DNA from: Psilocybe cubensis
Taxonomy: Eukaryota
Direction of reading: 5' to 3'
Assembly (NCBI GenBank): GCA_017499595.2
Contig: CM039009.1
Coordinates: 1 to 64,000, forward strand
DNA: 64,000 bases
Under the pieces are notes generated by a model. The model saw nothing but the letters and a program-made list of their open reading frames with translations, was not told the origin of the DNA and did not search any database. The position numbers and the translations under genes were made by a program. Below are positions 131 through 21,017 of the stretch, piece after piece; the stretch's first letter is position 1, and each line of letters opens with the position of its first letter.

Positions 131-723
131 AACCTAAACCTAAACCCTAAACCCTAAACCCTAAGCCCTAACCTAACCCCAACCCTAAGCTAACTAAGTC
201 TAACCTTAGTAGGAAGTAAGGTAGGCGTGTGAACTTCCGAAAGGCATGTGATTGTGAAGGGCCGGATCTAATTTAGTACATGGGAAAAGTTACTTAGTAC
301 CTCGGGAAAAGTTCCTTAGTACCGTGGAAACATTTTTGATGGACCGGATCATGAACTGTCCAATTAAGATTCACAACAATCAATCAATTGATTGTTAGGT
401 AAGGACCCAGGTAAGCTATTTATACTCTTGACATGAGAATATTCCCATGTCACGGTTACTCGGAGCCACGTAACCAGAGTATTTTATATCCATGTGATTC
501 ACATCACAGTCAATAACCCACGATGTCAAAGAACAAAAGTGTTGGATCCACTTTTGACAGGTTACCATGTGCCACATCGACCCGTGACACTCTGTTCATC
601 AGAGATCTGTCTAACTTGACAATAAACATTGACAGATTTGTGATAGTCGGTAAGATACATGACAGCTGCGCAGCATCACTTCACGCGCTGTCATCGGATG
701 TTCCAGAACATTCCTTCTAAGAA

Positions 724-1719
724 TAGCCACTGAAGAGTCTATAAAGACGAAAGGGCTGGCTGCTGATAACAATCAACAGCCCTCAAGTACTCGTCCTCTC
801 CCAAACTCCTGCCGCTTGTGCCTTCCCAACTCATCCGGGAGCCCTTTCGTCACTGATCTTGCCCTTGACTCGGGGACGTTTCATCGACATGTTGGCTGCC
901 TCACGGCAAGCGGGGCCCTTTTTCTTTCACTCGCTCACGCCTTCTATGTTGGGTTACGGAGGTCATACAAACTCGTTTTAGTCTAGCTGCGGGGTTATCC
1001 AGCTATGATGACTTTGTAATTCGAGGGCGCGCAGTTCTTCAATGGGTATGGACATCAGGTGAGAGTACACTGGGGGTTGTCAGGACCAGCTCTGCTGGAT
1101 ACGCTCCTGGCAAGTCGGTTGCAGCCGGCGACACTACCGAATTGCTGGGACGTCCTAAAGCTTGTGGGTACCGCCGACCGCTGGAAACAGCCTAGGCACC
1201 GGTGGCGACCGGGTATGGTAACAATCCCCAAGATTCAGCGAAAGCTGGAATGGATAATCAGCAGCGAATCCGTAACGGTCACGCCGACGGAAGCGTTCAA
1301 CGACTAGGTGGTAGTGGGGTCTTCGGATCTTAAGATATAGTCTTGGGAGTGGGGAAACCCACATCTGGTATCTAAACCGCGCCTCGCTGCTTACGAGGAC
1401 GGCCCGAAGTCCAGAACCGCTTAAAACGCGGGTGACCCGGCCTCCCCTTAGTAAAGGGAGTTAACACAAGGATGGACAAATAGTTCGTCGCCGGAAATGA
1501 ACCTGTGGCTGTAATGGCTGATGTGGCGCCCCTTGGTAAAGGGCTTAAAGGGTATTAGCCTGCCATGTCCAATGGCATGAGAGTGTCCCTTGGTAAAGGA
1601 CTTAATAGGCAATAGCCTGTTCTTTTGTCATGAGCGGTATGTAGTGATCGTTTGCCTGTACGGTAGCGCCCATTGCTTGCACTGGTCCACGCCCGTAAAA
1701 AATCACGAGCCGCTGGCCT
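724..1719 (+). ncRNA. Hammerhead ribozyme split by a group I intron (exon parts 724-783 and 1713-1719)
   Basis: tagcca-CTGAAGA-gtct(ataa)agac-GAAA-gggctg...cagcccT | 929-nt insert | Ctggc. Joining the exons gives the same sequence as the intact copy at 6064-6130. Confidence 0.9.
784..1712 (+). ncRNA. Group I self-splicing intron, IC1-like, 929 nt
   Basis: 5' exon ends in U783 and the intron ends in G1712. P1: acagcccU-ca (776-785) pairs tgGgggttgt (1071-1080) with a U783.G1073 wobble, extended by gtactc/gagtac. P aattgctggg 1140-1149; Q aatcagcagc 1256-1265; R gttcaacgacta 1295-1306; S aagatatagtc 1332-1342. P3 cactacc/ggtagtg; P7 gacta/tagtc; P8 with UUCG loop; P9 gtggg-GAAA-cccac; P5abc with a GAAA loop. 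Confidence 0.93.
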
Positions 1720-1824
1720 TCTTTCCATTTAACTCACAGTTTAAACAAGTCGCTCGCACCTCGCTTCGCTCGGTGCTCGCTCCCCCCCTAAACCCAACGA
1801 CTTTGCTATTACCCAACAGCTACT

Positions 1825-2980
1825 ATGTCTTCCACTTACTCTGCTGCCTTCTCTCGTGCCATGTCCCCCACCCTGGACGCACTCACCCAGGCTGTCGTCA
1901 ACAACACAGTTTTTGGCGTCAACGACGAAGCTGGCCGCCACAACGCCCTCATCGACGAGTTGGCCACTGTCGTCATCAAGAAAATAGCTGAGTGCCGCTC
2001 CATTGACCAGATTGTAGACTGCGTCTTTTTTGACTATCGTGCTGCCCTTAGGGAGTTTCTCCTCAACCTCGCATCGTGGTGCGATAAGAGGGAAACAGTC
2101 AAGGCTAGCCTCGAGCGCCTTGAACTTGCCGTTAGCGCAGGCAACACCCCCAATCGCCTTCGGGTGAAGGCTCCCGAGTTCCAACTTACGAAGGAATTCG
2201 CGGATGCCGGGTCAGCGGAAGCTCTTCGAGTTTCCTCTACGTTCTCCACCGCTCGTGATGTCTTCCAAAAGGCAATCAACGACGGCGCCATTCAGGCGAA
2301 AAAGGACGAACTGGCCTTTTGGGATGATAAATGCGCACTCAATAACTGTTATGAAGCTGCTGCCCTCATCGTTAAGACAACTTACGATGATCGCAAATCC
2401 AGCTATAAGCTCCCCGTTTTCTCTACAGACAACAAGGGAGTTCGTCGAATAACAGATTGGGTAGTGTCACCGCAGAAGAAGGCTGAATGCAGCGCATTGC
2501 AAACCATTTTGCCAGCCATCTTCTCTCATATCAAACAGATTGTCAACTTGCGCCACCGCGCTTTGGCAATCAAGATTGAGAAAAAGCGGTCGACTGCGGC
2601 AACAGCCGATGTCGAGATGGCCGATGCGACCAAACCAGGTCCATCGATTCAATCCCTTATTGATAAGGGCTTGAATGCACGTCTCAAGAAGCTCAACCTT
2701 GGATCTGTGGGCAAGAAGGCAAGTTCTCGTAACCCTTCACCCATAATTCTGGATACTAATTACTATTCTAACTACCCAGACTTTGTCTGGCCAGAATTCG
2801 TCCAAGGCTCCTCAACCTCAGGCCAAGAAAGCTGGCCCTTCGAAATTCAAACCCTCGTCGACGCCTTCGCAGAAGAAGCCCCAAACCAAGGCTTCCAACA
2901 AGGTCGACAACAAGAAGAAAGGGAAGGGGAGAGCTCCCGTCAAGAACGATCCAAAGGGAAAGGGAAAGGCAAGAGCCTAG
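1825..2980 (+). CDS. Predicted spliced ORF1 (join 1825-2718, 2780-2980), ~364 aa with a Lys-rich C-terminus
   Basis: Removing the 61-nt GC-AG intron joins codon 298 in frame to TLSGQNSSKAPQPQAKK...KGKGKARA*. Confidence 0.7.
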
Positions 2981-5355
2981 ACGCGCGGTCTAATGTAGTA
3001 CCTTTTACGTCGGTAAGACCCGCCTTCCCCAACTCTATTCCTGACGATATACTCACCATGACTAAAACAGACGCAGTTTCTTTTGTACACTTACATACGC
3101 CGATCTCATTCTTGTTGGCTGGCCAGTATCGTAGTAGTGTACACTGTAGTCCTGGTGTGGTGGTCCCTGTAGATATAGCAAATGATTTGTCACTCGGACT
3201 CAATTATATGTTTTTTACTCTACCTTCTCAAAGTCTGATCATGCAAGCATGGAATGATTTTCAACGAAGAATAAGATGGCGTATCTATTTTTTGTTTAAG
3301 GAAGGCATGAACAAACCTTTTGATCCAGATTACGGAGTAAGCTCAAAAAAGAAAGAGAAACCTCCAGTATTACCGCAATACATGGAACTTGGCCTTTCGA
3401 TGGGACGTCGGTACGTGCAACGCACGATCGCAAGTATCCCGGAAGAAGCCCTTACGGAGATGCGAAAGCACGCGTTCTCTCCTAAAAGGGACAAGATCCG
3501 TAAGTTTCTTATCGATAACAACTATGTTATTACGATGACAGATAAGAATCTTGGCCTCGCGGTGTCTGAACGCGACTGGATATTAAGGAATGAGCTCAAT
3601 CTTCTTGAAGATGAACGTAACTATGAAGAGTTAGAATTCGAAGTTGCGCAAGAAGTAATGAAGAGCAAAATGATCCAGATGCAAACTCTTGCACGTACCG
3701 TCGAAGATGAACATCTGTTTCTATTTGAACTTGGGTTGTCTCGATTCTTTCTATCGAATGTACCGGAAGACGGATCATCGTTCAAGTATCCTCAATTTCA
3801 TGGTATACCTAAAATCCACAAAAAACCTACTGGATTTAGGCCCATAATTCCGTGTCACTCTGTAGTATTTAATCCTGCAGCCAAGTTTGTATCAAAAGAG
3901 CTTAAGCCGATTATTAAATCGACTCCTTCAATCATTCACGGAACGAAGGATCTCTTTACGAGATTAAGCCAATTGCGTATAGACCCCAAACGACAATGGT
4001 ATTTTGTCACCGGGGATGTAGTTGCTTTCTATCCCAATATTCCGTTGGACTTGTGCATCGAAATCGTTTGTAATATGTACGAGGAATGGTTACTCAACGC
4101 TTCGGAAGAAAACACTGCATTAGCCCATATTAATCCAAATTCGTTAGAGAATAACTTGGTTAAATTGGGCATCTTTAAACGTGCTATCGAGATTGGCAAT
4201 ACGCAATTGATAACACAACATGGGTCTAGATATTTTAGACAAAAAAATGGCCTCGCAATGGGCGTCGCGGATTCTCCGGACCTTGCTAACCTCTTTGGAG
4301 CCCATTTTGAAATAAAATCAAAAATCTTAGACCACCCAAACGTGGCCTTCTATGGAAGGTACATCGACGATTGTTTCGCAATTGTTTACGCCGAGTCCGA
4401 AGCACTTGCACTTAATCTTATTAAAGAAACAATAAAGTTCGATGGTTGTGTTATCGAATGGGCTGTTTCCTCGTCGGGATGTCAATTTCTCGATGCTTTC
4501 ATATTCAAGGAGTCTGGAAAACTTCATTGGAAGCCATTTGTCAAGACAGGAAACAACCGAGAACGAGTTCCATGGGTATCACATCATCCTTTGGACGTCA
4601 AACGTGGCGTCTACATTGGAGAGTTATCCAGGTTAGCCGTGCTATGTAGTACCAAGGAAATCTACATCGGAGCAATTAGAGACCTTAACGCTCTCTATTT
4701 GATGCGCGGTTATCCCGAAAACCTAGTCATGTCTTGGTGTAAGAAGAATATACAAGAACGTTGGGAAAAGCGATTCGCTTTACGAGTCGCAGAGCACGAC
4801 GAATCCATTCTTGTACTTAAAACCAGATTTGATCAGGTATGGAATTGGTTTTCAGCTGCTGAACTTGGAAAAACTGTTACCGAGTACTGGTCGGCATGGT
4901 ATGAACATGCCGAGAAAGGTTTGTATAGTGCAGACTCGTCCAGACCCCTTATCAAACCAGATCCAAATTACGTTCACGACCTCGATGATGTTCGCCCGGA
5001 GCTGTTCACACAGATCCTCGTGGACGGAGAAACTGAGTTCGTACCGGATTTGAGGAAGATAGGACTACTCGGAAGTCGTTGGATAGTATCGCGAAAACGC
5101 AATACTAATCTTTTCGACCTTGCAAATGTGTGGAAGAAAACAGTCTTTCGTAAACTGGATGAAGACATCGCTGAAAAAGGTGGTGTTGTTCCCGAAACTC
5201 AAAACGTTAATGAAACTTATCATTCTGCTTTAGTTGAAGCTGCTGAACAGATAAGTATCGAAAGTGATAACGAGATAATACTTCATAGACGTTCAATCTC
5301 ACAAGAGAGGGAACATCCAGAATTCGGCAGAATATCCAAATCTTACAACCGATGA
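1825..5355 (+). CDS. Penelope-like reverse transcriptase polyprotein (ORF1 region plus RT, no endonuclease), 1176 aa
   Basis: Motifs TDKNLG, GIPKIHK..FRPII, VTGDVVAFYPNIP, QKNGLAMG..SP.LANLF, YGRYIDD, QFLD and the thumb SHHP..VKRG..GELSRL. No GIY-YIG motif follows. Confidence 0.95.
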   Translation: MSSTYSAAFSRAMSPTLDALTQAVVNNTVFGVNDEAGRHNALIDELATVVIKKIAECRSIDQIVDCVFFDYRAALREFLLNLASWCDKRETVKASLERLELAVSAGNTPNRLRVKAPEFQLTKEFADAGSAEALRVSSTFSTARDVFQKAINDGAIQAKKDELAFWDDKCALNNCYEAAALIVKTTYDDRKSSYKLPVFSTDNKGVRRITDWVVSPQKKAECSALQTILPAIFSHIKQIVNLRHRALAIKIEKKRSTAATADVEMADATKPGPSIQSLIDKGLNARLKKLNLGSVGKKASSRNPSPIILDTNYYSNYPDFVWPEFVQGSSTSGQESWPFEIQTLVDAFAEEAPNQGFQQGRQQEEREGESSRQERSKGKGKGKSLDARSNVVPFTSVRPAFPNSIPDDILTMTKTDAVSFVHLHTPISFLLAGQYRSSVHCSPGVVVPVDIANDLSLGLNYMFFTLPSQSLIMQAWNDFQRRIRWRIYFLFKEGMNKPFDPDYGVSSKKKEKPPVLPQYMELGLSMGRRYVQRTIASIPEEALTEMRKHAFSPKRDKIRKFLIDNNYVITMTDKNLGLAVSERDWILRNELNLLEDERNYEELEFEVAQEVMKSKMIQMQTLARTVEDEHLFLFELGLSRFFLSNVPEDGSSFKYPQFHGIPKIHKKPTGFRPIIPCHSVVFNPAAKFVSKELKPIIKSTPSIIHGTKDLFTRLSQLRIDPKRQWYFVTGDVVAFYPNIPLDLCIEIVCNMYEEWLLNASEENTALAHINPNSLENNLVKLGIFKRAIEIGNTQLITQHGSRYFRQKNGLAMGVADSPDLANLFGAHFEIKSKILDHPNVAFYGRYIDDCFAIVYAESEALALNLIKETIKFDGCVIEWAVSSSGCQFLDAFIFKESGKLHWKPFVKTGNNRERVPWVSHHPLDVKRGVYIGELSRLAVLCSTKEIYIGAIRDLNALYLMRGYPENLVMSWCKKNIQERWEKRFALRVAEHDESILVLKTRFDQVWNWFSAAELGKTVTEYWSAWYEHAEKGLYSADSSRPLIKPDPNYVHDLDDVRPELFTQILVDGETEFVPDLRKIGLLGSRWIVSRKRNTNLFDLANVWKKTVFRKLDEDIAEKGGVVPETQNVNETYHSALVEAAEQISIESDNEIILHRRSISQEREHPEFGRISKSYNR
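2719..2779 (+). other. Putative spliceosomal GC-AG intron within the PLE ORF (also 7924-7984 and 17511-17571)
   Basis: AAG|GCAAGT donor, CTAAC/CTAAT branch-like motif, CCAG acceptor, 61 nt long. Conserved in all three full copies. Confidence 0.72.
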
Positions 5356-6063
5356 AAAGAATACTAGCGCGTAAGGCGTAAAGCATTAGAAAAAAACCCT
5401 AACCGTAAGTATTCCTTGCTACAAAGTAACAAACATCTACTTACAAGCAACACATTGGATTAAATAGCTAAACCTAAACCTAAACCCTAAACCCTAAACC
5501 CTAAGCCCTAACCTAACCCCAACCCTAAGCTAACTAAGTCTAACCTTAGTAGGAAGTAAGGTAGGCGTGTGAACTTCCGAAAGGCATGTGATTGTGAAGG
5601 GCCGGATCTAATTTAGTACATGGGAAAAGTTACTTAGTACCTCGGGAAAAGTTCCTTAGTACCGTGGAAACATTTTTGATGGACCGGATCATGAACTGTC
5701 CAATTAAGATTCACAACAATCAATCAATTGATTGTTAGGTAAGGACCCAGGTAAGCTATTTATACTCTTGACATGAGAATATTCCCATGTCACGGTTACT
5801 CGGAGCCACGTAACCAGAGTATTTTATATCCATGTGATTCACATCACAGTCAATAACCCACGATGTCAAAGAACAAAAGTGTTGGATCCACTTTTGACAG
5901 GTTACCATGTGCCACATCGACCCGTGACACTCTGTTCATCAGAGATCTGTCTAACTTGACAATAAACATTGACAGATTTGTGATAGTCGGTAAGATACAT
6001 GACAGCTGCGCAGCATCACTTCACGCGCTGTCATCGGATGTTCCAGAACATTCCTTCTAAGAA

Positions 6064-6130
6064 TAGCCACTGAAGAGTCTATAAAGACGAAAGGGCTGGC
6101 TGCTGATAACAATCAACAGCCCTCTGGCCT
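6064..6130 (+). ncRNA. Type I hammerhead ribozyme, intact; predicted cleavage after C6124
   Basis: Stem I gcca/tggc, core CTGAAGA, stem II gtct/agac, GAAA, stem III gggctg/cagccc, CUC cleavage triplet. Confidence 0.92.
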
Positions 6131-6196
6131 TCTTTCCATTTAACTCACAGTTTAAACAAGTCGCTCGCACCTCGCTTCGCTCGGTGCTCGCTCCCA

Positions 6197-6283
6197 CCCT
6201 AACCCTAAACCCTAAACCCTAAACCCTAAACCCTAAACCCTAAACCCCCTAAAAACCCTAAACCCTAAACCCTAAACCCTAAC
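6197..6283 (+). repeat. Interstitial telomeric tract between PLE units
   Basis: CCCTAAA repeats with irregular units (ccccctaaaaa). Confidence 0.9.
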
Positions 6284-6858
6284 CTAACCCCAACCCTAAC
6301 CTAACCCCAACCCTAAGCTAACTAAGTCTAACCTTAGTAGGAAGTAAGGTAGGCGTGTGAACTTCCGAACGGCATGTGATTGTGAAGGGCCGGATCTAAT
6401 TTAGTACATGGGAAAAGTTACTTAGTACTTCGGGAAAAGTTCCTTAGTACCGTGGAAACATTTTTGATGGACCGGATCATGAACTGTCCAATTAAGATTC
6501 ACAACAATCAATCATTCTATTGTTTGATTGTTAGGTAAGGACCCAGGTAAGTTATTTATACTCTAGACATGTGAATATTCCCATGTCGCGGTTACTCGGA
6601 GCCACGTAACCAGAGTAATCTATATCCATGTGATTCACATCACAGTCAATAACCCACGATGTCAAAGAACAAAAGTGTTGGATCCACTTTTGACAGGTTA
6701 CCATGTGCCACATCGACCCGTGACACTCTGTTCATCAGAGACCTGTCTAACTTGACAATAAACATTGACAGATTTGTGATAGTCGGTAAGATACATGACA
6801 GCTGCGCAGCATCACTTCACGCGCTGTCATCGGATGTCTAGAACATTCCTTCTAAGAA

Positions 6859-6925
6859 TAGCCACTGAAGAGTCTATAAAGACGAAAGGGCTGGTTGTTG
6901 GGATCCCCCAACAGCCCTCTGGCTA
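6859..6925 (+). ncRNA. Type I hammerhead ribozyme, intact; cleavage after C6919
   Basis: 6-bp stem I tagcca/tggcta with the full core. Confidence 0.93.
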
Positions 6926-7029
6926 CTTTCCATTTAACTCCCAGTTTAAACTAGTCGCTCGCACCTCGCTTCGCTCGGTGCTCGCTCCCCCCCTAAACCC
7001 AACGACTTTGCTATTATCCATCAGCCACT

Positions 7030-10000
7030 ATGTCATCTCAATACTCTGCTGCTTTCTCTCGTGCCATGTCCCCCACCCTGGACGCACTCACCCAGGCCGT
7101 CGTCAACAACACCGTTTTCGGCGTCAACGATGAAGCAGGCCGCCATAACGCTCTGATCGACGAGCTGGCCACTGTGGTCATCAAAAAAATAGCTGAGTGC
7201 CGCTCCGTTGACCAAGTCATAGACTGCGTCTTTTTTGACTATCGTGCTGCCCTTAGGGAGTTTCTCCTCAACCTCGCATCGTGGTGCGATAAGAGGGAAA
7301 CAGTCAAGGCTAGCCTCGAGCGCCTTGAATCTGCCGTTAGCGCAGGCAACACGCCCAATCGCCTTAAGGTGAAGGCACCCGAGTTCCAACTTACGAAGGA
7401 ATTCGCGGATGCCGGGTCAGCGGAGGCTCTTCGAGTCTCCACTACGTTCTCTACCGCTCGTGACGCCTTCCAAAAGGCAATTAACGACGGCGCCATTCAG
7501 GCGAAAAAGGACGAGCTGACTTTTTGGGATGATAAATGCGCACTCAACTCTTGCTACGAAGCTGCTGCCCTCATCGTTAAGGCAACTTACGATGATCGCA
7601 AATCCAGCTACAAGCTCCCTGTTTTCTCTACAGATAACAAGGGAGTTCGACGTATAGCAGAGTGGGTAGTGTCTCCGCAAAAGAAAGCCGAATGCAGTGC
7701 GCTGCAAACCATACTGCCGGCGATCTTTTCTCACATCAAACAAATTGTCAACATGCGCCACCGCGCTTTGGCAATTAAGATTGAGAAAAAGCGGACGACT
7801 GCGGCAACAGCCGATGTCGAGATGGCCGACGCGACCAAACCAGGTCCGTCGATTCAATCCCTTATTGATAAGGGCTTGAATGCACGTCTCAAGAAGCTCA
7901 ACCTTGGATCTGTGGGCAAGAAGGCAAGTTTTCGTAACCCTTCACCCATAATTCTGGATACTAATTACTACTCTAATTACCCAGACTTTGTCTGGCCAGA
8001 ATTCGTCCAAGGCTCCTCAACCTCAGGCCAAGAAAGCTGGCCCTTCGAAACCCAAGTCGTCGTCGACGCCTTCGCAACGCAAGCCTCAAACCAAGGCTTC
8101 CAACAAGGTCGACAACAAGAAGAAAGGGAAGGGGAGAGCTCCCGTCAAGAACGATCCAAAGGGAAAGGGAAAGGCAAGAGCCTAGATGCGCGGTCTAATG
8201 TAGTACCTTTTACGTCGGTGAGACCCGCCTTCCCCAACTCTATTCCTGACGATATACTCACCATGACTAAAACAGACGCAGTTTCTTTCGTACACTTACA
8301 TACTCCAATATCATTCTTGTTGGCTGGCCAGTATCGTAGTAGTGTACATTGTAGTCCTGGTGTTTCTGTCCCTGTTGATGTAGCAAACGATCTCTCTCTC
8401 GGACTTAATTATATGTTTTTCACTCTGCCTTCTAAAAGTCTGATCATGCAAGCATGGAATGATTTCCAACGAAGAATAAGATGGCGTATCTATTTTTTGT
8501 TTAAGGAAGGCATGAATAAACCTTTTGATCCAGATTATGGAGTAAGCTCAAAAAAGAAAGAGAAACCTCCTGTATTACCGCAATATATGGAACTTGGCCT
8601 TTCGATGGGACGTCGGTACGTGCAACGCACGATCGCAAGTATCCCGGAAGAAGCCCTTACGGAGATGCGAAAGCACGCGTTCTCTCCTAAAAGGGACAAG
8701 ATCCGTAAGTTTCTTATCGATAACAACTATGTTATTACGATGACAGATAAGAATCTTGGCCTCGCGGTGTCTGAACGCGACTGGATATTAAGGAATGAGC
8801 TCAATCTTCTTGAAGATGAACGTAATTACGAAGAGTTAGAATTCGAAGTTGCGCAAGAAGTTATGAAGAGCAAAATGATTCAGATGCAAACGCTCGCACG
8901 TACTGTCGAAGATGAACATCTGTTTCTATTTGAACTTGGGTTGTCTCGATTCTTTCTATCGAATGTACCGGAAGACGGATCATCGTTCAAGTATCCTCAA
9001 TTTCATGGTATACCTAAAATCCACAAGAAACCTACTGGATTTAGGCCCATAATTCCGTGTCACTCTGTAGTATTTAATCCTGCAGCCAAGTTTGTATCAA
9101 AAGAGCTTAAGCCGATTATTAAATCGACTCCTTCAATCATACACGGAACGAAGGATCTCTTTACGAGATTAAGCCAATTGCGTATAGACTCCAAAAGACA
9201 ATGGTATTTTGTCACTGGAGATGTAGTTGCTTTCTATCCCAATATTCCGTTGGACTTGTGCATCGAAATCGTTTGTAGTATGTACGAGGAATGGTTACTC
9301 AACGCTTCGGAAGAAAACACTGCATTAGCCCATATTAATCCAAATTCGTTAGAGAATAACTTGGTTAAATTGGGCATCTTTAAACGTGCTATCGAGATTG
9401 GCAATACGCAATTGATAACACAACATGGGTCTAGATATTTTAGACAAAAAAATGGCCTCGCAATGGGCGTCGCGGATTCTCCGGACCTTGCTAACCTCTT
9501 TGGAGCCCATTTTGAAATAAAGTCAAAAATCTTAGACCACCCAAACGTGGCCTTCTATGGAAGGTACATCGACGATTGTTTCGCAATTGTTTACGCCGAG
9601 TCCGAAGCACTTGCACTTAATCTTATTAAAGAAACAATAAAGTTCGATGGTTGTGTTATCGAATGGGCTGTTTCCTCGTCGGGATGTCAATTTCTCGATG
9701 CTTTCATATTCAAGGAGTCTGGAAAACTTCATTGGAAGCCTTTTGTCAAGACAGGAAACAACCGAGAACGAGTTCCATGGGTATCACATCATCCTTTGGA
9801 CGTCAAACGTGGCGTCTACATTGGAGAGTTATCCAGGTTAGCCGTGCTATGTAGTACCAAGGAAATCTACATCGGAGCAATTAGAGACCTTAACGCTCTC
9901 TATTTGATGCACGGTTATCCCGAAAACCTAGTCATATCTTGGTGTAAGAAGAATATACAAGAACGTTGGGAAAAGCGATTCGCTTTACGAGTCGCAGAGC

Positions 10001-10560
10001 ACGACGAATCCATTCTTGTACTTAAAACCAGATTTGATCAGGTATGGAATTGGTTTTCAGCTGCTGAACTTGGAAAAACTGTTACCGAGTACTGGTCGGC
10101 ATGGTATGAACATGCCGAGAAAGGTTTGTATAGTGCAGACTCGTCCAGACCCCTTATCAAACCAGATCCAAATTACGTTCACGACCTCGATGATGTTCGC
10201 CCGGAGCTGTTCACACAGATCCTCGTGGACGGAGAAACTGAGTTCGTACCGGATTTGAGGAAGATAGGACTACTCGGAAGTCGTTGGATAGTATCGCGAA
10301 AACGCAATACTAATCTTTTCGACCTTGCAAATGTGTGGAAGAAAACAGTCTTTCGTAAACTGGATGAAGACATCGCTGAAAAAGGTGGTGTTGTTCCCGA
10401 AACTCAAAACGTTAATGAAACTTATCATTCTGCTTTAGTTGAAGCTGCTGAGCAGATAAGTATCGAAAGTGATAACGAGATAATACTTCATAGACGTTCA
10501 ATCTCACAAGAGAGGGAACATCCAGAATTTGGCAGAATATCCAAATCTTACAACCGATGA
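7030..10560 (+). CDS. Penelope-like RT polyprotein, copy B, 1176 aa
   Basis: Same RT motifs as copy A; uninterrupted ORF. Confidence 0.95.
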   Translation: MSSQYSAAFSRAMSPTLDALTQAVVNNTVFGVNDEAGRHNALIDELATVVIKKIAECRSVDQVIDCVFFDYRAALREFLLNLASWCDKRETVKASLERLESAVSAGNTPNRLKVKAPEFQLTKEFADAGSAEALRVSTTFSTARDAFQKAINDGAIQAKKDELTFWDDKCALNSCYEAAALIVKATYDDRKSSYKLPVFSTDNKGVRRIAEWVVSPQKKAECSALQTILPAIFSHIKQIVNMRHRALAIKIEKKRTTAATADVEMADATKPGPSIQSLIDKGLNARLKKLNLGSVGKKASFRNPSPIILDTNYYSNYPDFVWPEFVQGSSTSGQESWPFETQVVVDAFATQASNQGFQQGRQQEEREGESSRQERSKGKGKGKSLDARSNVVPFTSVRPAFPNSIPDDILTMTKTDAVSFVHLHTPISFLLAGQYRSSVHCSPGVSVPVDVANDLSLGLNYMFFTLPSKSLIMQAWNDFQRRIRWRIYFLFKEGMNKPFDPDYGVSSKKKEKPPVLPQYMELGLSMGRRYVQRTIASIPEEALTEMRKHAFSPKRDKIRKFLIDNNYVITMTDKNLGLAVSERDWILRNELNLLEDERNYEELEFEVAQEVMKSKMIQMQTLARTVEDEHLFLFELGLSRFFLSNVPEDGSSFKYPQFHGIPKIHKKPTGFRPIIPCHSVVFNPAAKFVSKELKPIIKSTPSIIHGTKDLFTRLSQLRIDSKRQWYFVTGDVVAFYPNIPLDLCIEIVCSMYEEWLLNASEENTALAHINPNSLENNLVKLGIFKRAIEIGNTQLITQHGSRYFRQKNGLAMGVADSPDLANLFGAHFEIKSKILDHPNVAFYGRYIDDCFAIVYAESEALALNLIKETIKFDGCVIEWAVSSSGCQFLDAFIFKESGKLHWKPFVKTGNNRERVPWVSHHPLDVKRGVYIGELSRLAVLCSTKEIYIGAIRDLNALYLMHGYPENLVISWCKKNIQERWEKRFALRVAEHDESILVLKTRFDQVWNWFSAAELGKTVTEYWSAWYEHAEKGLYSADSSRPLIKPDPNYVHDLDDVRPELFTQILVDGETEFVPDLRKIGLLGSRWIVSRKRNTNLFDLANVWKKTVFRKLDEDIAEKGGVVPETQNVNETYHSALVEAAEQISIESDNEIILHRRSISQEREHPEFGRISKSYNR

Positions 10561-11276
10561 AAAGAATACTAGCGCTTAAGGCGTAAAGCATTAGAAAAAA
10601 AACCCTAACCGTAAGTATTCCTTGCTATAAAGTAACAAACATCTACTTACAAGCAACACATTGGATTGAATAGCTAAACCTAAACCTAAACCCTAAACCC
10701 TAAACCCTAAACCCTAACCTAACCCCAACCCTAAGCTAACTAAGTCTAACCTTAGTAGGAAGTAAGGTAGGCGTGTGAACTTCCGAACGGCATGTGATTG
10801 TGAAGGGCCGGATCTAATTTAGTACATGGGAAAAGTTACTTAGTACTTCGGGAAAAGTTCCTTAGTACCGTGGAAACATTTTTGATGGACCGGATCATGA
10901 ACTGTCCAATTAAGATTCACAACAATCAATCATTCTATTGTTTGATTGTTAGGTAAGGACCCAGGTAAGTTATTTATACTCTAGACATGTGAATATTCCC
11001 ATGTCGCGGTTACTCGGAGCCACGTAACCAGAGTAATCTATATCCATGTGATTCACATCACAGTCAATAACCCACGATGTCAAAGAACAAAAGTGTTGGA
11101 TCCACTTTTGACAGGTTACCATGTGCCACATCGACCCGTGACACTCTGTTCATCAGAGACCTGTCTAACTTGACAATAAACATTGACAGATTTGTGATAG
11201 TCGGTAAGATACATGACAGCTGCGCAGCATCACTTCACGCGCTGTCATCGGATGTCTAGAACATTCCTTCTAAGAA

Positions 11277-11343
11277 TAGCCACTGAAGAGTCTATAAAGA
11301 CGAAAGGGCTGGTTGTTGGGATCCCCCAACAGCCCTCTGGCTA
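11277..11343 (+). ncRNA. Type I hammerhead ribozyme, intact
   Basis: Matches 6859-6925. Confidence 0.92.
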
Positions 11344-11408
11344 CTTTCCATTTAACTCCCAGTTTAAACTAGTCGCTCGCACCTCGCTTCGCTCGGTGCT
11401 CGCTCCCC

Positions 11409-11446
11409 CCCTAAACCCTAAACCCTAAACCCTAAACCCTAAACCC
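11409..11446 (+). repeat. Interstitial telomeric tract capping the 5'-truncated copy C
   Basis: About 5 CCCTAAA units joined directly to mid-ORF sequence cgcgactgg. Confidence 0.9.
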
Positions 11447-14073
11447 GCGACTGGATATTAAGGAATGAGCTCAATCTTCTTGAAGATGAACGTAACTATG
11501 AAGAGTTAGAATTCGAAGTTGCGCAAGAAGTAATGAAGAGCAAAATGATCCAGATGCAAACTCTTGCACGTACCGTCGAAGATGAACATCTGTTTCTATT
11601 TGAACTTGGGTTGTCTCGATTCTTTCTATCGAATGTACCGGAAGACGGATCATCGTTCAAGTATCCTCAATTTCATGGTATACCTAAAATCCACAAGAAA
11701 CCTACTGGATTTAGGCCCATAATTCCGTGTCACTCTGTAGTATTTAATCCTGCAGCCAAGTTTGTATCAAAAGAGCTTAAGCCGATTATTAAATCGACTC
11801 CTTCAATCATTCACGGAACGAAGGATCTCTTTACGAGATTAAGCCAATTGCGTATAGACCCCAAACGACAATGGTATTTTGTCACCGGGGATGTAGTTGC
11901 TTTCTATCCCAATATTCCGTTGGACTTGTGCATCGAAATCGTTTGTAGTATGTACGAGGAATGGTTACTCAATGCTTCGGAAGAAAACACTGCATTAGCC
12001 CATATTAATCCAAATTCGTTAGAGAATAACTTGGTTAAATTGGGCATCTTTAAACGTGCTATCGAGATTGGCAATACGCAATTGATAACACAACATGGGT
12101 CTAGATATTTTAGACAAAAAAATGGCCTCGCAATGGGCGTCGCGGATTCTCCGGACCTTGCTAACCTCTTTGGAGCCCATTTTGAAATAAAGTCAAAAAT
12201 CTTAGACCACCCTAATGTGGCCTTCTATGGAAGGTACATCGACGATTGTTTTGCAATTGTTTACGCCGAGTCCGAAGCACTTGCACTTAATTTAATTAAA
12301 GAAACAATAAAGTTCGATGGTTGTGTTATCGAATGGGCTGTTTCCTCGTCGGGATGTCAATTTCTCGATGCTTTCATATTCAAGGAGTCTGGAAAACTTC
12401 ATTGGAAGCCTTTTGTCAAGACAGGAAACAACCGAGAACGAGTTCCATGGGTATCACATCATCCTTTAGACGTCAAACGTGGCGTTTACATTGGAGAGTT
12501 ATCCAGGTTAGCCGTGCTATGTAGTACCAAGGAAATCTACATTGGAGCAATTAGAGACCTTAACGCTCTCTATTTGATGCGCGGTTATCCCGAAAACCTA
12601 GTCATGTCTTGGTGTAAGAAGAATATACAAGAACGTTGGGAAAAGCGATTCGCTTTACGAATCGCAGAGCACGACGAATCCATTCTTGTACTTAAAACCA
12701 GGTTTGATCAGGTATGGAATTGGTTTTCAGCTGCTGAACTTGGAAAAACTGTTACCGAGTACTGGTCGGCATGGTATGAACATGCCGAGAAAGGTCTGTA
12801 TAGTGTAGACTCGTCCAGACCCCTTATCAAACCAGATCCAAATTACGTTCACGACCTCGATGATGTTCGCCCGGAGCTGTTCACACAGATCCTCGTGGAC
12901 GGAGAAACTGAGTTCGTACCGGATTTGAGGAAGATAGGACTACTCGGAAGTCGTTGGATAGTATCGCGAAAGCGCAATACTAATCTTTTCGACCTTGCAA
13001 ATGTGTGGAAGAAAACAGTTTTTCGTAAACTGGATGAAGACATTGCCGAAAAAGGTGGTGTTGTTCCCGAAACTCAAAACGTTAATGAAACTTATCATTC
13101 TGCTCTAGTTGAAGCTGCTGAACAGATAAGTATCGAAAGCGATAACGAGATAATACTTCATAGACGTTCAATCTCACAAGAGAGGGAACATCCAGAATTC
13201 GGCAGAATATCCAAATCTTACAACCGATGAAAAGAATACTAGCGCTTAAGGCGTAAAGCATTAGAAAAAAACCCTAACCGTAAGTATTCATTGCTATAAA
13301 GTAACAAACATCTACTTACAAGCAACACATTGGATTAAATAGCTAAACCTAAACCTAAACCCTAAACCCTAAGCCCTAACCTAACCCCAACCCTAAGCTA
13401 ACTAAGTCTAACCTTAGTAGGAAGTAAGGTAGGCGTGTGAACTTCCGAACGGCATGTGATTGTGAAGGGCCGGATCTAATTTAGTACATGGGAAAAGTTA
13501 CTTAGTACTTCGGGAAAAGTTCCTTAGTACCGTGGAAACATTTTTGATGGACCGGATCATGAACTGTCCAATTAAGATTCACAACAATCAATCAATTGAT
13601 TGTTAGGTAAGGACCCAGGTAAGCTATTTATACTCTTGACATGTGAATATTCCCATGTCGCGGTTACTCGGAGCCACGTAACCAGAGTAATCTATATCCA
13701 TGTGATTCACATCACAGTCAATAACCCACGATGTCAAAGAACAAAAGTGTTGGATCCACTTTTGACAGGTTACCATGTGCCACATTGACCCGTGACACTC
13801 TGTTCATCAGAGACCTGTCTAACTTGACAATAAACATTGACAGATTTGTGATAGTCGGTAAGATACATGACAGCTGCACAGCATCACTTCACGCGCTGTC
13901 ATCGGATGTCTAGAACATTCCTTCTAAGAATAGCCACTGAAGAGTCTATAAAGACGAAAGGGCTGGTTGTTGGTACCCCCCAACAGCCCTCTGGCCTTCT
14001 TTCCATTTAACTCACAGTTTAAACAAGTCGCTCGCACCTCGCTTCGCTCGGTGCTCGCTCCCCCCCTAAACCC
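11446..14073 (+). mobile_element. PLE copy C, 5'-truncated (RT core to 13230, 3' UTR, terminal repeat)
   Basis: Starts within the ORF at the RDWILRN codons. The residual ORF 11533-13230 keeps YIDD. Confidence 0.9.
13931..13997 (+). ncRNA. Type I hammerhead ribozyme, intact
   Basis: Same core; distal stem III variant ttgg/ccaa. Confidence 0.9.
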
Positions 14074-14105
14074 TAAACCCTAAACCCTAAACCCTAAACC
14101 CTAAA

Positions 14106-14200
14106 CCCCCCAACAGCCCTCTGGCTTCTTTCCATTTTAACTCCCAGTTTAAACTAGTCGCTCGCACCTCGCTTCGCTCGGTGCTCGCTCCCCCCCTAAA
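14106..14200 (+). mobile_element. Mini PLE 3'-end fragment (~95 bp) between telomeric tracts
   Basis: cccccaacagccctc^tggc...gctcgctccccccctaaa only. Confidence 0.85.
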
Positions 14201-14925
14201 CCTAAACCCTAAACCCTAAACCCTAAGCCCTAACCTAACCCCAACCCTAAGCTAACTAAGTCTAACCTTAGTAGGAAGTAAGGTAGGCGTGTGAACTTCC
14301 GAACGGCATGTGATTGTGAAGGGCCGGATCTAATTTAGTACATGGGAAAAGTTACTTAGTACCTCGGGAAAAGTTCCTTAGTACCGTGGAAACATTTTTG
14401 ATGGACCAGATCATGAACTGTCCAATTAAGATTCACAACAATCAATCAATTGATTGTTAGGTAAAGACCCAGGTAAGCTATTTATACTCTAGACATGTGA
14501 ATATTCCCATGTCGCAGTTACTTGGAGCCACGTAACCAGAGTACTCTATATCCATGTGATTCACATCACAGTCAATAACCCACGATGTCAAAGAACAAAA
14601 GTGTTGGATCCATTTTTGACAGGTTACCATGTGCCACACTGACCCGTGACACTCTGTTCATCAGAGACCTGTCTAACTTGACAATAAACATTGACAGATT
14701 TGTGATAGTCGGTAAGATACATGACAGCTGCGCAGCATCACTTCACGCGCTGTCATCGGATGTCTAGAACATTCCTTCTAAGAATAGCCACTGAAGAGTC
14801 TATAAAGACGAAAGGGCTGGTTGTTGGGATCCCCCAACAGCCCTCTGGCTTCTTTCCATTTTAACTCCCAGTTTAAACTAGTCGCTCGCACCTCGCTTCG
14901 CTCGGTGCTCGCTCCCCCCCTAAAC
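14197..14925 (+). mobile_element. Solo terminal repeat (5'-truncated PLE) with an intact hammerhead at 14785-14851
   Basis: Repeat unit without ORF; begins at the element's internal telomere-like tract. Confidence 0.87.
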
Positions 14926-15576
14926 CTAAACCCTAAACCCTAAACCCTAAGCCCTAACCTAACCCCAACCCTAAGCTAACTAAGTCTAACCTTAGTAGGA
15001 AGTAAGGTAGGCGTGTGAACTTCCGAACGGCATGTGATTGTGAAGGGCCGGATCTAATTTAGTACATGGGAAAAGTTACTTAGTACCTCGGGAAAAGTTC
15101 CTTAGTACCGTGGAAACATTTTTGATGGACCGGATCATGAACTGTCCAATTAAGATTCACAACAATCAATCATTCTATTTTTTGATTGTTAGGTAAGGAC
15201 CCAGGTAAGCTATTTATACTCTTGACATGAGAATATTCCCATGTCGCGGTTACTCGGAGCCATGTAACCAGAGTATTCTATATCCATGTGATTCACATCA
15301 CAGTCAATAACCCACGATGTCAAAGAACAAAAGTGTTGGATCCACTTTTGACAGGTTACCATGTGCCACATCGACCCGTGACACTCTGTTCATCAGAAAC
15401 CTGTCTAACTTGACAATAAACATTGACAGATTTGTGATAGTCGGTAAGATACATGACAGCTGCGCAGCATCACTTCACGCGCTGTCATCGGATGTCTAGA
15501 ACATTCCTTCTAAGAATAGCCACTGAAGAGTCTATAAAGACGAAAGGGCTGGCCGTTTGTACCCCCAAACAGCCCT

Positions 15577-16505
15577 CAAGTACTCGTCCTCTCCCAAACT
15601 CCTGCCGCTTGTGCCTTCCCAACTCATCCGGGAGCCCTTTCGTCACTGATCTTGCCCTTGACTCGGGGACGTTTCATCGACATGTTGGCTGCCTCACGGC
15701 AAGCGGGGCCCTTTTTCTTTCACTCGCTCACGCCTTCTATGTTGGGTTACGGAGGTCATACAAACTCGTTTTAGTCTAGCTGCGGGGATATCCAGCTATG
15801 ATGACTTTGTAATTCGAGGGCGCGCAGTTCTTCAATGGGTATGGACATCAGGTGAGAGTACACTGGGGGTTGTCAGGACCAGCTCTGCTGGATACGCTCC
15901 TGGCAAGTCGGTTGCAGCCGGCGACACTACCGAATTGCTGGGACGTCCTAAAGCTTGTGGGTACCGCCGACCGCTGGAAACAGCCTAGGCACCGGTGGCG
16001 ACCGGGTATGGTAACAATCCCCAAGATTCAGCGAAAGCTGGAATGGATAATCAGCAGCGAATCCGTAACGGTCACGCCGACGGAAGCGTTCAACGACTAG
16101 GTGGTAGTGGGGTCTTCGGATCTTAAGATATAGTCTTGGGAGTGGGGAAACCCACATCTGGTATCTAAACCGCGCCTCGCTGCTTACGAGGACGGCCCGA
16201 AGTCCAGAACCGCTTAAAACGCGGGTGACCCGGCCTCCCCTTAGTAAAGGGAGTTAACACAAGGATGGACAAATAGTTCGTCGCCGGAAATGAACCTGTG
16301 GCTGTAATGGCTGATGTGGCGCCCCTTGGTAAAGGGCTTAAAGGGTATTAGCCTGCCATGTCCAATGGCATGAGAGTGTCCCTTGGTAAAGGACTTAATA
16401 GGCAATAGCCTGCTCTTTTGTCATGAGCGGTATGTAGTGATCGTTTGCCTGTACGGTAGCGCCCATTGCTTGCACTGGTCCACGCCCGTAAAAAATCACG
16501 AGCCG
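15577..16505 (+). ncRNA. Group I intron, second copy, 929 nt, splitting the hammerhead that starts at 15517
   Basis: cagcccT|caagtac...gagccG|ctggc. Nearly identical to 784-1712 (two substitutions noticed by eye). Confidence 0.93.
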
Positions 16506-16616
16506 CTGGCTTCTTTCCATTTAACTCACAGTTTAAACAAGTCGCTCGCACCTCGCTTCGCTCGGTGCTCGCTCCCACCCTAAACCACTCGACTTTGCTA
16601 TTACCCAACAGCTACT

Positions 16617-19600
16617 ATGTCTTCCACTTACTCTGCTGCCTTCTCTCGTGCCATGTCCCCCACCCTGGACGCACTCACCCAGGCTGTCGTCAACAATACA
16701 GTCTTTGGCGTCAACGACGAAGCTGGCCGCCACAACGCCCTCATCGACGAGTTGGCCACTGTCGTCATCAAAAAAATAGCTGAGTGCCGCTCCATTGACC
16801 AGATCGTAGACTGCGTCTTTTTTGACTATCGTGCTGCCCTTAGGGAGTTTCTCCTCAACCTCGCATCGTGGTGCGACAAGAGGGAAACAGTCAAGGCTAG
16901 CCTTGAGCGCCTTGAACTTGCCGTTAGCGCAGGCAACACCCCCAATCGCCTTCGGGTGAAGGCTCCCGAGTTCCAACTCACGAAGGAATTCACGGATGCC
17001 GGGTCAGCGGAGGCTCTTCGAGTCTCCTCTACGTTCTCCACCGCTCGTGACGTCTTCCAAAAGGCGATTAACGACGGCGCCATCCAGGCGAAAAAGGACG
17101 AACTGGCCTTTTGGGATGATAAATGCGCACTCAATAACTGTTATGAAGCTGCTGCCCTCATCGTTAAGACAACTTACGATGATCGCAAATCCAGCTATAA
17201 GCTCCCCGTTTTCTCTACAGACAACAAGGGAGTTCGTCGAATAACAGATTGGATAGTGTCACCGCAGAAGAAGGCTGAATGCAGCGCATTGCAAACCATT
17301 TTGCCAGCCATCTTCTCTCATATCAAACAGATTGTCAACTTGCGCCACCGCGCTTTGGCAATCAAGATTGAGAAAAAGCGGTCGACTGCGGCAACAGCCG
17401 ATGTCGAGATGGCCGATGCGACCAAACCAGGTCCATCGATTCAATCCCTTATTGATAAGGGCTTGAATGCACGTCTCAAGAAGCTCAACCTTGGATCTGT
17501 GGGCAAGAAGGCAAGTTCTCGTAACCCTTCACCCATAATTTTGGATACTAATTACTATTCTAATTACCCAGACTTTGTCTGGCCAGAATTCGTCCAAGGC
17601 TCCTCAACCTCAGGCCAAGAAAGCTGGCCCTTCGAAACCCAAGTCCTCGTCGACGCCTTCGCAGAGGAAGCCCCAAACCAAGGCTTCCAACAAGGTCGAC
17701 AACAAGAAGAAAGGGAAGGGGAGAGCTCCCGTCAAGAACAATCCAAAGGGAAAGGGAAAGGCAAGAGCCTAGACGCGCGGTCTAATGTAGTACCTTTTAC
17801 GTCGGTAAGACCCGCCTTCCCCAACTCTATTCCTGACGATATACTCACCATGACTAAAACAGACGCAGTTTCTTTTGTACACTTACATACGCCGATCTCA
17901 TTCTTGTTGGCTGGCCAGTATCGTAGTAGTGTACATTGTAGTCCTGGTGTGGTGGTCCCTGTAGATATAGCAAATGATTTGTCGCTCGGACTCAATTATA
18001 TGTTTTTTACTCTGCCTTCTCAAAGTCTGATCATGCAAGCATGGAACGATTTTCAACGAAGAATAAGATGGCGTATCTATTTTTTGTTTAAGGAAGGCAT
18101 GAACAAACCTTTTGATCCAGATTATGGAGTAAGCTCTAAGAAAAAGGAGAAACCTCCAGTATTACCGCAATATATGGAACTTGGCCTTTCGATGGGACGT
18201 CGGTACGTGCAACGCACGATCGCAAGTATCCCGGAAGAAGCCCTTACGGAGATGCGAAAGCACGCGTTCTCTCCTAAAAGGGACAAGATCCGTAAGTTTC
18301 TTATCGATAACAACTATGTTATTACGATGACAGATAAGAATCTTGGCCTCGCGGTGTCTGAACGCGACTGGATATTAAGGAATGAGCTCAATCTTCTTGA
18401 AGATGAACGTAACTACGAAGAGTTAGAATTTGAAGTTGCGCAAGAAGTTATGAAGAGCAAAATGATCCAGATGCAAACTCTCGCACATACCGTCGAAGAT
18501 GAACATCTGTTTCTTTATGAACTTGGGTTGTCTCGATTCTTTCTATCGAATATACCGGAAGACGGATCATCGTTCAAGTATCCTCAATTTCATGGTATAC
18601 CTAAAATCCACAAGAAACCTACTGGATTTAGGCCCATAATTCCGTGTCACTCTGTAGTATTTAATCCTGCAGCCAAGTTCGTATCAAAAGAGCTTAAGCC
18701 GATTATTAAATCGACTCCTTCAATCATACACGGAACGAAGGATCTCTTTACGAGATTAAGCCAATTGCGTATAGACTCCAAAAGACAATGGTATTTTGTC
18801 ACTGGAGATGTAGTTGCTTTCTATCCCAATATCCCGTTGGACTCGTGCATCGAAATCGTTTGTAGTATGTACGAGGAATGGTTACTCAACACTTCGGAAG
18901 AAAACACTGCATTAGCCCATATTAAGCCAAATTCGTTAGAGAATAACTTGATTAAATTGGGCATCTTTAAACGTGCTATCGAGATTGGCAATACGCAATT
19001 GATAACACAACATGGGTCTAGATATTTTAGACAAAAAAATGGCCTCGCAATGGGCGTCGCGGATTCTCCGGACCTTGCTAACCTCTTTGGAGCCCATTTT
19101 GAAATAAAGTCAAAAATCTTAGACCACCCAAACGTGGCCTTCTACGGAAGGTACATCGACGATTGTTTCGCAATTGTTTACGCCGAGTCCGAAACACTTG
19201 CACTTAATCTTATTAAAGAAACAATAAAGTTCGATGGTTGTGTTATCGAATGGGCTGTTTCCTCGTCGGGATGTCAATTTCTCGATGCTTTCATATTCAA
19301 GGAGTCTGGAAAACTTCATTGGAAGCCATTTGTCAAGACAGGAAACAACCGAGAACGAGTTCCATGGGTATCACATCATCCTTTGGACGTCAAACGTGGC
19401 GTTTACATTGGAGAGTTATCCAGGTTAGCCGTGCTATGTAGTACCAAGGAAATCTACATCGGAGCAATTAGAGACCTTAACGCTCTCTATTTGATGCGCG
19501 GTTATCCCGAAAACCTAGTCATGTCTTGGTGTAAGAAGAATATACAAGAACGTTGGGAAAAGCGATTTGCTTTACGAGTCGCAGAGCACGACGAATCCAT

Positions 19601-20147: not shown

Positions 20148-20856
20148 AAAGAATACTAGCGCGTAAGGCGTAAAGCATTAGAAAAAAACCCTAACCGTAA
20201 GTATTCCTTGCTATAAAGTAACAAACATCTACTTACAAGCAACACATTGGATTGAATAGCTAAACCTAAACCCTAAACCCTAAACCCTAAGCCCTAACCT
20301 AACCCCAACCCTAAGCTAACTAAGTCTAACCTTAGTAGGAAGTAAGGTAGGCGTGTGAACTTCCGAACGGCATGTGATTGTGAAGGGCCGGATCTAATTT
20401 AGTACATGGGAAAAGTTACTTAGTACCTCGGGAAAAGTTCCTTAGTACCGTGGAAACATTTTTGATGGACCGGATCATGAACTGTCCAATTAAGATTCAC
20501 AACAATCAATCATTCTATTTTTTGATTGTTAGGTAAGGACCCAGGTAAGCTATTTATACTCTTGACATGAGAATATTCCCATGTCGCGGTTACTCGGAGC
20601 CATGTAACCAGAGTATTCTATATCCATGTGATTCACATCACAGTCAATAACCCACGATGTCAAAGAACAAAAGTGTTGGATCCACTTTTGACAGGTTACC
20701 ATGTGCCACATCGACCCGTGACACTCTGTTCATCAGAAACCTGTCTAACTTGACAATAAACATTGACAGATTTGTGATAGTCGGTAAGATACATGACAGC
20801 TGCGCAGCATCACTTCACGCGCTGTCATCGGATGTCTAGAACATTCCTTCTAAGAA

Positions 20857-20923
20857 TAGCCACTGAAGAGTCTATAAAGACGAAAGGGCTGGCCGTTTGT
20901 ACCCCCAAACAGCCCTCTGGCTT
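20857..20923 (+). ncRNA. Type I hammerhead ribozyme, intact
   Basis: Full core; distal stem III tttg/caaa. Confidence 0.9.
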
Positions 20924-21017
20924 CTTTCCATTTAACTCACAGTTTAAACAAGTCGCTCGCACCTCGCTTCGCTCGGTGCTCGCTCCCACCCTAAACCCTA
21001 AAACCCTAAACCCTAAA

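Follow-up and report, generated by a model that had tools for sequence, protein, structure and literature searches.

The DNA analysed here, referred to as the window, is the first 64,000 nucleotides (nt) of contig CM039009.1 of Psilocybe cubensis (assembly GCA_017499595.2, forward strand). It starts with (CCCTAA)n repeats (1–190), which are followed by an array of copies of one retroelement. The subject of this work is a group I intron in the leader of that retroelement, and in particular three small hairpins in the long 3' tail of the intron, which an earlier note on this DNA had described as repeated binding sites for a protein. Each of these is hairpin A of a self-contained three-way junction of about 48–58 nt, called a module below. 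The intron, its modules and their second copies are as follows.

784–1712, + strand: group I intron of 929 nt, with the 5' exon ending at U783 and the intron at G1712; carries the modules.
1437–1494, + strand: module U1; closing stem P0 1437–1441/1490–1494 (CCGGC/GCCGG), hairpin A 1442–1460, linker 1461–1470, hairpin B 1471–1489.
1521–1568, + strand: module U2; P0 1521–1526/1563–1568, hairpin A 1528–1544, linker UUAA 1545–1548, hairpin B 1549–1562 with loop AUUA.
1578–1625, + strand: module U3; P0 1578–1583/1620–1625, hairpin A 1585–1601, linker UUAA 1602–1605, hairpin B 1606–1619 with loop AAUA.
15577–16505, + strand: second copy of the intron, in element copy 3; Rfam family RF00028 matches at 15861–16157 with 70.9 bits.
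16230–16287, 16314–16361 and 16371–16418, + strand: modules of the second intron copy, with covariance-model scores of 66.5 and 69.4 bits and a partial U1 match.

The three hairpins are found in the sequence as they had been described, namely CUC[C]CCUU-AGUA-AAGGGAG-UUAA (1442–1464), GCC[C]CUU-GGUA-AAGGGC-UUAA (1528–1548) and GUC[C]CUU-GGUA-AAGGAC-UUAA (1585–1605). They lie outside the group I core, in the tail of 350 nt between P9 (1344–1362 in the Rfam alignment) and the 3' splice site at G1712. The lower stems differ in a compensatory manner, again as claimed: at pair 20/34, units 1 and 2 have C-G where unit 3 has U-A, and at pair 19/35, unit 1 has U-A where the other two have G-C. The bulged C is one of a run of C residues, and several placements fit the sequence equally. 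The 12-mer at the top of the hairpin, CCTTRGTAAAGG, occurs with no more than one mismatch at six sites in the window, against 0.57 expected from shuffles (none of 100 shuffles reached six). These are three sites in each of two element copies that are 97.8% identical, and therefore count as three independent sites.

Thermodynamic folding alone is ambiguous for the hairpins. Energy-only folding gives a z-score of about -1.2, with alternative pairings present, and the mean pair probability of hairpin A in the fold of the whole intron is 0.65 for unit 1, 0.38 for unit 2 and 0.23 for unit 3.

All modules have the same order of parts: a variable closing stem P0, hairpin A (GYC[C]CUU-RGUA-AAGGRC), a four-base linker and hairpin B, with P0 formed by the flanks of the two hairpins. 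The linker is UUAA, once UUCA, and hairpin B has 4–5 base pairs (bp) and a loop of the type A-N-U-A (AUUA, AAUA or AGUA). U1 is longer, having a 10-nt linker and a 7-bp hairpin B with loop AAAUA. Its junction is returned by both minimum-energy folds, with in-context probabilities of 0.99 for P0, 0.65 for hairpin A and 1.0 for hairpin B.

For comparison, 32 related metagenomic loci were retrieved with a protein profile, and three of them (L027, L028 and L029) carry modules. A gapless alignment of 48 columns was made from seven modules: U2 and U3 of the window, U3 of copy 3, the three modules of L028 (a, b and c) and module b of L027. It omits U1, with its longer linker and hairpin B, and the identical rows (L027 c, L029 c, and U1 and U2 of copy 3). 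The seven modules amount to about five independent ones from two lineages. Because their rows are paralogues or near copies of one another, the shuffle counts given here are not probabilities. With the three-way junction as the given structure, 94.1% of the 119 cells pair, compared with 76.7% in shuffles, and the covariation score is 0.571, compared with 0.224; none of 500 shuffles reached either value. When the partners are slid by 1–3 columns, pairing falls to 36–56%. Double-sided changes are present in 8 of the 17 pairs. In P0 all six pairs vary, five of them with double changes, and in hairpin B all five vary, two with double changes. Hairpin A is different, in that five of its six pairs are invariant and only pair 9/23 varies (C-G in four rows, U-A in three). 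Run without a given structure, RNAalifold returns the same junction with 16 pairs, 8 of them compensatory, and departs from it only in the choice of the bulged C and in one junction pair.

The presence of G-U pairs places the structure on + strand RNA, and the invariant pairs of hairpin A imply that its sequence is read, and not its shape alone. The loops, the bulge, the linker and the upper stem are thus under strong sequence-specific constraint, while P0 and hairpin B keep their pairing only. The hairpins of the earlier note are therefore real, covarying structures of the + strand RNA, and the covariation holds among the modules of homologous introns, where P0 and hairpin B covary (pair counts and RNAalifold, seven modules). 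What has to be changed is their extent, since each is only one arm of a larger junction.

A covariance model of the module (R1), built from the seven aligned rows, was used to search the window and the 32 loci (199,115 bases) at E-values up to 10. It found ten full modules (65–72 bits; U2 scores 66.5 and U3 66.2) and two partial matches to U1 (17 bits), which are limited to hairpin A because the linker and hairpin B of U1 are longer than in the other units. Every match is in intron sequence, that is, in the two introns of the window, the intron of L028 and the intron remnants of L027 and L029. The 10-mer CTTRGTAAAG gives the same distribution, occurring in 3 of the 32 loci (twice in L027, three times in L028 and once in L029), always upstream of the open reading frame (ORF). 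The model detects no module in the remaining 29 loci, which also have neither the motif nor any group I match; L028 is the only locus with a group I core above threshold (RF00028, 57 bits, gathering score 50). Three of the loci without modules (L006, L010 and L020) have hammerhead motifs flanking the ORF on both sides. As modules are absent from 29 of the 32 loci, some of which have both hammerheads, the module belongs to the intron and not to the retroelement.

The proteins of L027, L028 and L029 are 25–32% identical to the window protein. L027 and L029 are elements of the L028 kind whose 5' ends are truncated, so that they start inside the intron. The L028 intron covers 452–1590 (...CAAGUU|...G1590|), with borders set by an intron-less junction in the downstream end of the L029 element, and has three 5-bp candidates for its guide. 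It is the one other intron of this type found, and it also has three copies of the hairpin, within modules at 726–773 (5' of the core), 1068–1115 (in the P6 loop) and 1517–1564 (26 nt before the 3' splice site). The P6 loop insert is 45 nt long in L028, where it holds one module, and 11 nt long in the window. The three modules of the window are all in the 3' tail, within 189 nt and with spacers of 26 and 9 nt, whereas those of L028 are in three different segments.

The cores of the two introns are identical at 145 of 242 positions (60%) and the peripheries at 42–45%. Within the whole intron alignment, the module is the best gapless window of 35 nt, with 30 identities. A manual count gives 3 differences in 35 positions both for U2 against L028 c and for U3 against L028 a.

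Exact-pattern scans with the hairpin A motif were extended to other collections. In viral_contigs they gave 29 loci, with a best module score of 29.1 bits, compared with 65–72 bits for true modules. That best locus (L057) was rejected as a module, having no hairpin B and lying inside an ORF of 285 amino acids (aa) on the other strand, and Rfam gave no group I match on the 14 of these 29 loci that were scanned. In genome_contigs there were at least 115 prokaryote matches, which by a rough estimate is about the number expected by chance.

The RNA that carries the modules is by its sequence a group I intron, with a core (P3–P9) that scores above the family threshold, a U at the end of the 5' exon, a G at the end of the intron, and precise excision. 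RF00028 matches at 987–1364 with 73 bits (gathering score 50). The borders are set by element copy 2, which has no intron and reads ...CAGCCCT|CTGGC... at the junction; the same junction is present in DNA contigs from sequencing runs X9, X12 and X13. A guide, GGGGUUGU (1073–1080), forms 8 of 8 pairs with the 5' exon end. As the intron-less forms are seen at the DNA level, self-splicing is a predicted activity. The Rfam alignments also show a P5abc-like region in the core, with a GGUAAYAAUC stretch, and we take the core to be similar to subgroup IC1. Between the 5' splice site and the guide there are about 290 nt (784–1072), which is unusually long for an insert in the P1 loop region and includes a G+C-rich hairpin followed by a U run (885–930), with a weak match to suhB (21.6 bits, Rfam). 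An Rfam scan of 200–1900 at E-values up to 1 gave only the group I match and three weak matches upstream of 940, and nothing else over the modules.

Only one of the DNA runs, X9, covers the intron tail. It does so in separate contigs (867–1663, with gaps), with one change in 1459–1663. The U3 closing pair G1583-U1620 is G-C in an X9 contig (T>C at 1620), as it is in copy 3 of the window. No new variation of the hairpins was seen within the covered parts of X9, X11, X12 and X13; hairpin 1 is partly in an X9 gap (1440–1458), and the other three runs cover little of the intron.

In three papers (PMC3679873, PMC8395846, PMC9223047), nuclear group I introns are said to be confined to ribosomal DNA (rDNA). 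A literature search, with most subscription journals outside its reach, gave no report of a Penelope-like element with a group I intron, or of the module motif.

The host retroelement was mapped by self-comparison of the window. There are two full copies, at 133–6238 and 14919–21032, with 97.8% identity over 6124 columns. Element copy 2 (6196–11446) matches 63–784 and then 1710–6233, the stretch between being absent, and 11446–14108 is a copy truncated at its 5' end. A unit of about 650 nt (128–784), with telomere-type repeats at its start and a hammerhead-type motif at its end, occurs in many copies. The two terminal units of the first full copy (128–784 and 5468–6124) show no difference over 657 nt (100% identity), as against 2–6% for other copies of the unit, which suggests that both were made in a single retrotransposition event. 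Telomere-type repeats start again directly after the end of the hammerhead at 6124.

The element has a single reading frame (1825–5355) encoding a protein of 1176 aa, which comprises an N-terminal helical domain, a basic linker and a reverse transcriptase (RT). The earlier note had assumed a separate basic ORF1 protein, and this has to be dropped, as one frame holds all three parts. The predicted structure, with a mean predicted local distance difference test (pLDDT) score of 64, is divided as follows.

Residues 1–260: N-terminal domain, all-helical with long helices, confident in the predicted structure.
Residues 260–440: basic stretch, disordered in the predicted structure.
Residues 440–1100: RT, TERT-like in the predicted structure.

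The 1176-aa protein shares 99% identity with one named from Psilocybe cubensis and has 238 relatives at E ≤ 0.001 (7999 candidates scored). Pfam gave no family for it or for P0001 at E-values up to 1, and a sequence profile search of the PDB gave no matches; on a truncated copy, RVT_1 remained below threshold (27.1 bits, cut-off 29.6). The assignment as RT is based on the name that the source gives to P0001, on this sub-threshold match and on the fold search. In a Foldseek search of the PDB, ranks 1–11 were all TERT entries (E 2.6e-7 to 1.1e-5). VIA gave Z-scores of 15.1–17.3 for 11 TERT entries, with viral polymerases following at 14.6, and aligned residues 442–991 of the model with 452–1058 of human TERT. 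The alignment thus begins at residue 452 of human TERT, which we take to be inside the RNA-binding TRBD domain. This is a retroelement that attaches to telomeres, bears hammerheads and has a telomerase-like RT. Its combination of telomere-type repeats, hammerhead motifs and a TERT-like RT with no endonuclease match would fit the endonuclease-deficient Penelope-like elements described in PMC8557442.

The intron abuts a hammerhead, the parts of which were read from the sequence.

724–784, + strand: hammerhead-type motif abutting the intron.
724–729, + strand: 5' strand of helix I, UAGCCA.
730–736, + strand: CUGAAGA, followed by helix II and GAAA.
753–758/777–782, + strand: helix III, followed by U783 and C784.

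The Rfam model Hammerhead_3 matches 724–784 weakly (19.5 bits, E 0.59), and the motif pattern is present in 21 of the 32 related loci, and in L002 and L006 with UGGCU of the leader as helix I. The intron sits inside this hammerhead, which is made up of 724–784 and 1713–1719 (about 6855–6925 in the intron-less copy). In the intron-less copy, helix I arises, as in L002 and L006, from pairing of UGGCUA in the leader with the UAGCCA that precedes CUGAAGA. Before splicing, C784 is followed by AAGUAC and helix I cannot form. Splicing would then rebuild a cleavable hammerhead, with the cleaved C coming from the 3' exon. The intron guide (1073–1080) and helix III of the hammerhead would compete for the same CAGCCC.

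The L028 intron is located 9 nt downstream of the inferred hammerhead cut, and the window intron 1 nt upstream of it. Homologous introns at different sites suggest that the intron has moved between retroelement RNAs, for example by reverse splicing and then copying by the element's own RT. The truncated copies begin inside the intron (L027 from about 121, L029 from about 1045), so unspliced RNA must serve as a template for reverse transcription. A direct repeat of the target of about 45–48 nt (1005–1050 and 5397–5445) flanks the L029 copy, which lies next to an apparent interrupted gene and so reads as an internal insertion and not a telomeric one.

It is worth adding that the leader has a further hairpin (1756–1776), between the hammerhead and intron and the ORF, with a conserved loop UCGCUUCGCUY that also occurs in L005, L006, L018, L027 and L028. 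Its stems covary, being GCACC/GGUGC in the window and CCCACCCACCC/GGGUGGGUGGG in L028, and in the downstream copy of L029 the loop reads as its reverse complement. This hairpin is a second conserved RNA element, belonging to the retroelement itself. Elsewhere in the window there is an inverted pair of about 320 nt with 81% identity (32991–33295 and 41731–41418), and within 56205–57186 about 780 nt align with themselves (79%) when shifted by 204 nt.

No part of the intron is better conserved than the modules, although they are outside the catalytic core. On the basis of these comparisons we tentatively propose, as something close to an even call, that they are candidate docking sites for a conserved partner acting in trans, probably a protein. 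Such a module would work wherever it was grafted, in the P6 loop, the 5' periphery or the 3' tail, and would recruit its partner to the unspliced or the excised intron RNA. The partner could be a conserved host protein, or the TRBD-like part of the element's telomerase-like RT. The earlier idea of repeated binding sites accords with the varied positions, the near-constant loop, bulge and linker and the three copies in both introns; the element's own protein, which it had put forward as the partner, is one candidate.

A purely structural role is possible though rather less than probable: the modules would be peripheral folding or tertiary-contact domains, as P5abc or P9.1-P9.2 are in IC1 introns, which stabilise the core or tie peripheral arms together with no protein involved. 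They do sit at the ends of peripheral helices, in a group I intron with a core that we take to be IC1-like, those of L028 are on three different peripheral arms, and forcing all three junctions on 1341–1712 costs 5.8 kcal/mol (-122.7 against -128.5). However, the modules occupy one arm in the window and three in L028, so that the same core contacts are impossible in both, and three copies so alike would vie for a single receptor and favour misfolding. The alternative folds of the intron illustrate this risk of mispairing and speak against a pure folding role. As read from the alignment, the only conserved complement found to the loops is GUACC at J4/5-P5, present once per intron. A brace needs a fixed geometry, which near-identical repeats would disturb; the free position of the modules and the retention of three near-identical copies make a docking site more likely than a brace of the ribozyme fold.

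Several points weigh against docking sites. There are only two intron lineages, whose rows are paralogues or close copies, and the shuffle statistics overstate their independence. L028 is decayed, with 7 stops in the frame that was tried and a longest ORF of 642 aa. The in-context probabilities are low (0.0 for P0 of L028 a and b; 0.10 for hairpin B and 0.16 for P0 of U2). RNA–RNA contact motifs such as tetraloop receptors can be equally conserved in sequence, and direct-repeat arrays with no known role are reported from the peripheries of nuclear group I introns (PMC9223047).

Within the docking reading, the specific version in which the partner is the element's own protein, through its basic N-terminal part or its RT, seems unlikely. 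Binding might then select unspliced RNA for reverse transcription, or tune splicing to the level of the protein. The best PDB matches of the protein are telomerase RTs. According to PMC3592445, TERT binds a three-way junction of telomerase RNA in which P5 varies, P6 is short and P6.1 has 4 bp, and its two linked hairpins (39 nt) suffice in trans; P0 with hairpins A and B has the same topology and size. The telomerase-RNA junction has been kept from vertebrates to fungi while the proteins have diverged, so that one objection to the RT as partner falls away. The truncated copies that start in the intron (L027 and L029) show that unspliced RNA is reverse transcribed, while copying of spliced RNA loses the intron, as in copy 2; a signal favouring unspliced RNA would therefore explain how the intron persists. 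On the other hand, 29 of the 32 related loci have no module, so the retroelement protein does not need it. The loop of P6.1 has the consensus NUNGN, with U and G essential (PMC3592445), from which the loops of hairpin B (AUUA, AAUA and AGUA) depart, and in the Rfam scan of 200–1900 only the group I family reached its gathering score and no telomerase RNA family appeared at E-values up to 1.

A bolder form of the same idea, which by analogy would make the module a functional look-alike of P5-P6-P6.1 that captures either the element's TERT-like RT or the host telomerase, must be considered improbable. If true, intron-bearing RNA would be copied preferentially onto chromosome ends, the intron carrying its own 'copy me' signal and spreading by reverse splicing together with the RT of the element.

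It is very doubtful that the modules have no function and simply remain from local duplication or from a small mobile insert. Units 2 and 3 do resemble a tandem duplication of about 57 nt, with GCCUG...CAUGAG common to both after the module; any insert in a hairpin loop would gain a P0 stem automatically; and repeat arrays with no known role are reported for P1, P2, P5, P6, P8 and P9 of myxomycete rDNA introns (PMC9223047). However, identity between lineages is 30–32 of 35 against 42–45% in the flanking peripheries, and the changes are compensatory (hairpin B of L028 b compared with L027 b has C-G to U-A and G-U to G-C).

The modules mark whatever enables the intron to survive in a host from which it disappears each time spliced RNA serves as template. 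Knowing their partner would reveal how a retroelement and a self-splicing intron work together. Should the partner prove to be the RT, the modules would be a second natural class of RNA ligand for telomerase-type enzymes.

Several known motifs were considered for the hairpin or the module and rejected. For the L11-binding GTPase-associated centre, R1 was run with filters off on the 23S rRNA of E. coli, the bacterial version only; its best match, 5.8 bits, was elsewhere, with nothing at the L11 site (L033, 1310–1367). Coat-protein operators of the MS2/PP7 type, which we take to have a bulged purine below an A-N-Y-A-type loop and to lie in a phage replicase leader, do not fit, as the bulge here is C, loop A is GGUA in two of the three window units and the host is a fungal retroelement. 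A spliceosomal mini-intron (GUAAAG...UUAAU...UAG) would span only 23 nt, the stems are too short for an RNase III AGNN substrate and the loops are GGUA in two of three, and a K-turn would have tandem G-A pairs, of which there are none.

Among larger systems, P5abc of the Tetrahymena intron is a single domain, fixed in position, whose contacts with the core are made by a tetraloop and an A-rich bulge. Like it, the modules are self-folding peripheral domains built on a three-way junction; unlike it, they are triplicated and movable. Retroviral packaging signals downstream of the splice donor are present in unspliced RNA only, the intron there being spliceosomal and the protein Gag. The likeness, a signal confined to unspliced RNA, would apply only if the modules bind the RT.

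There is a likeness in design to the CR4/5 junction of telomerase RNA (P5-P6-P6.1), to which TERT binds with its TRBD (PMC3592445). Both have a variable connector stem, then a longer first hairpin, then a second hairpin of 4–5 bp with a loop of 4–5 nt; the core is 35 nt in the module and 39 nt in telomerase RNA; the function of the latter is independent of context, and the neighbouring protein here is TERT-like. Unlike CR4/5, the module has the loops AUUA, AAUA, AGUA and AAAUA in place of NUNGN, is present in three copies instead of one, and is inside a group I intron. As the NUNGN consensus is absent, the module is not a member of the telomerase-RNA junction family, and the resemblance is of design only.

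The arrays in myxomycete rDNA introns, which are nuclear IC1 introns, are similar in another respect, being repeated hairpin-forming peripheral motifs in non-identical copies, with no known role (PMC9223047). Those arrays are lineage-specific, head-to-tail and variable in copy number, whereas the module is a defined junction in a retroelement leader, nearly unchanged between two distant introns and present three times in each. A further difference from the arrays is that one of the two introns has its modules dispersed.

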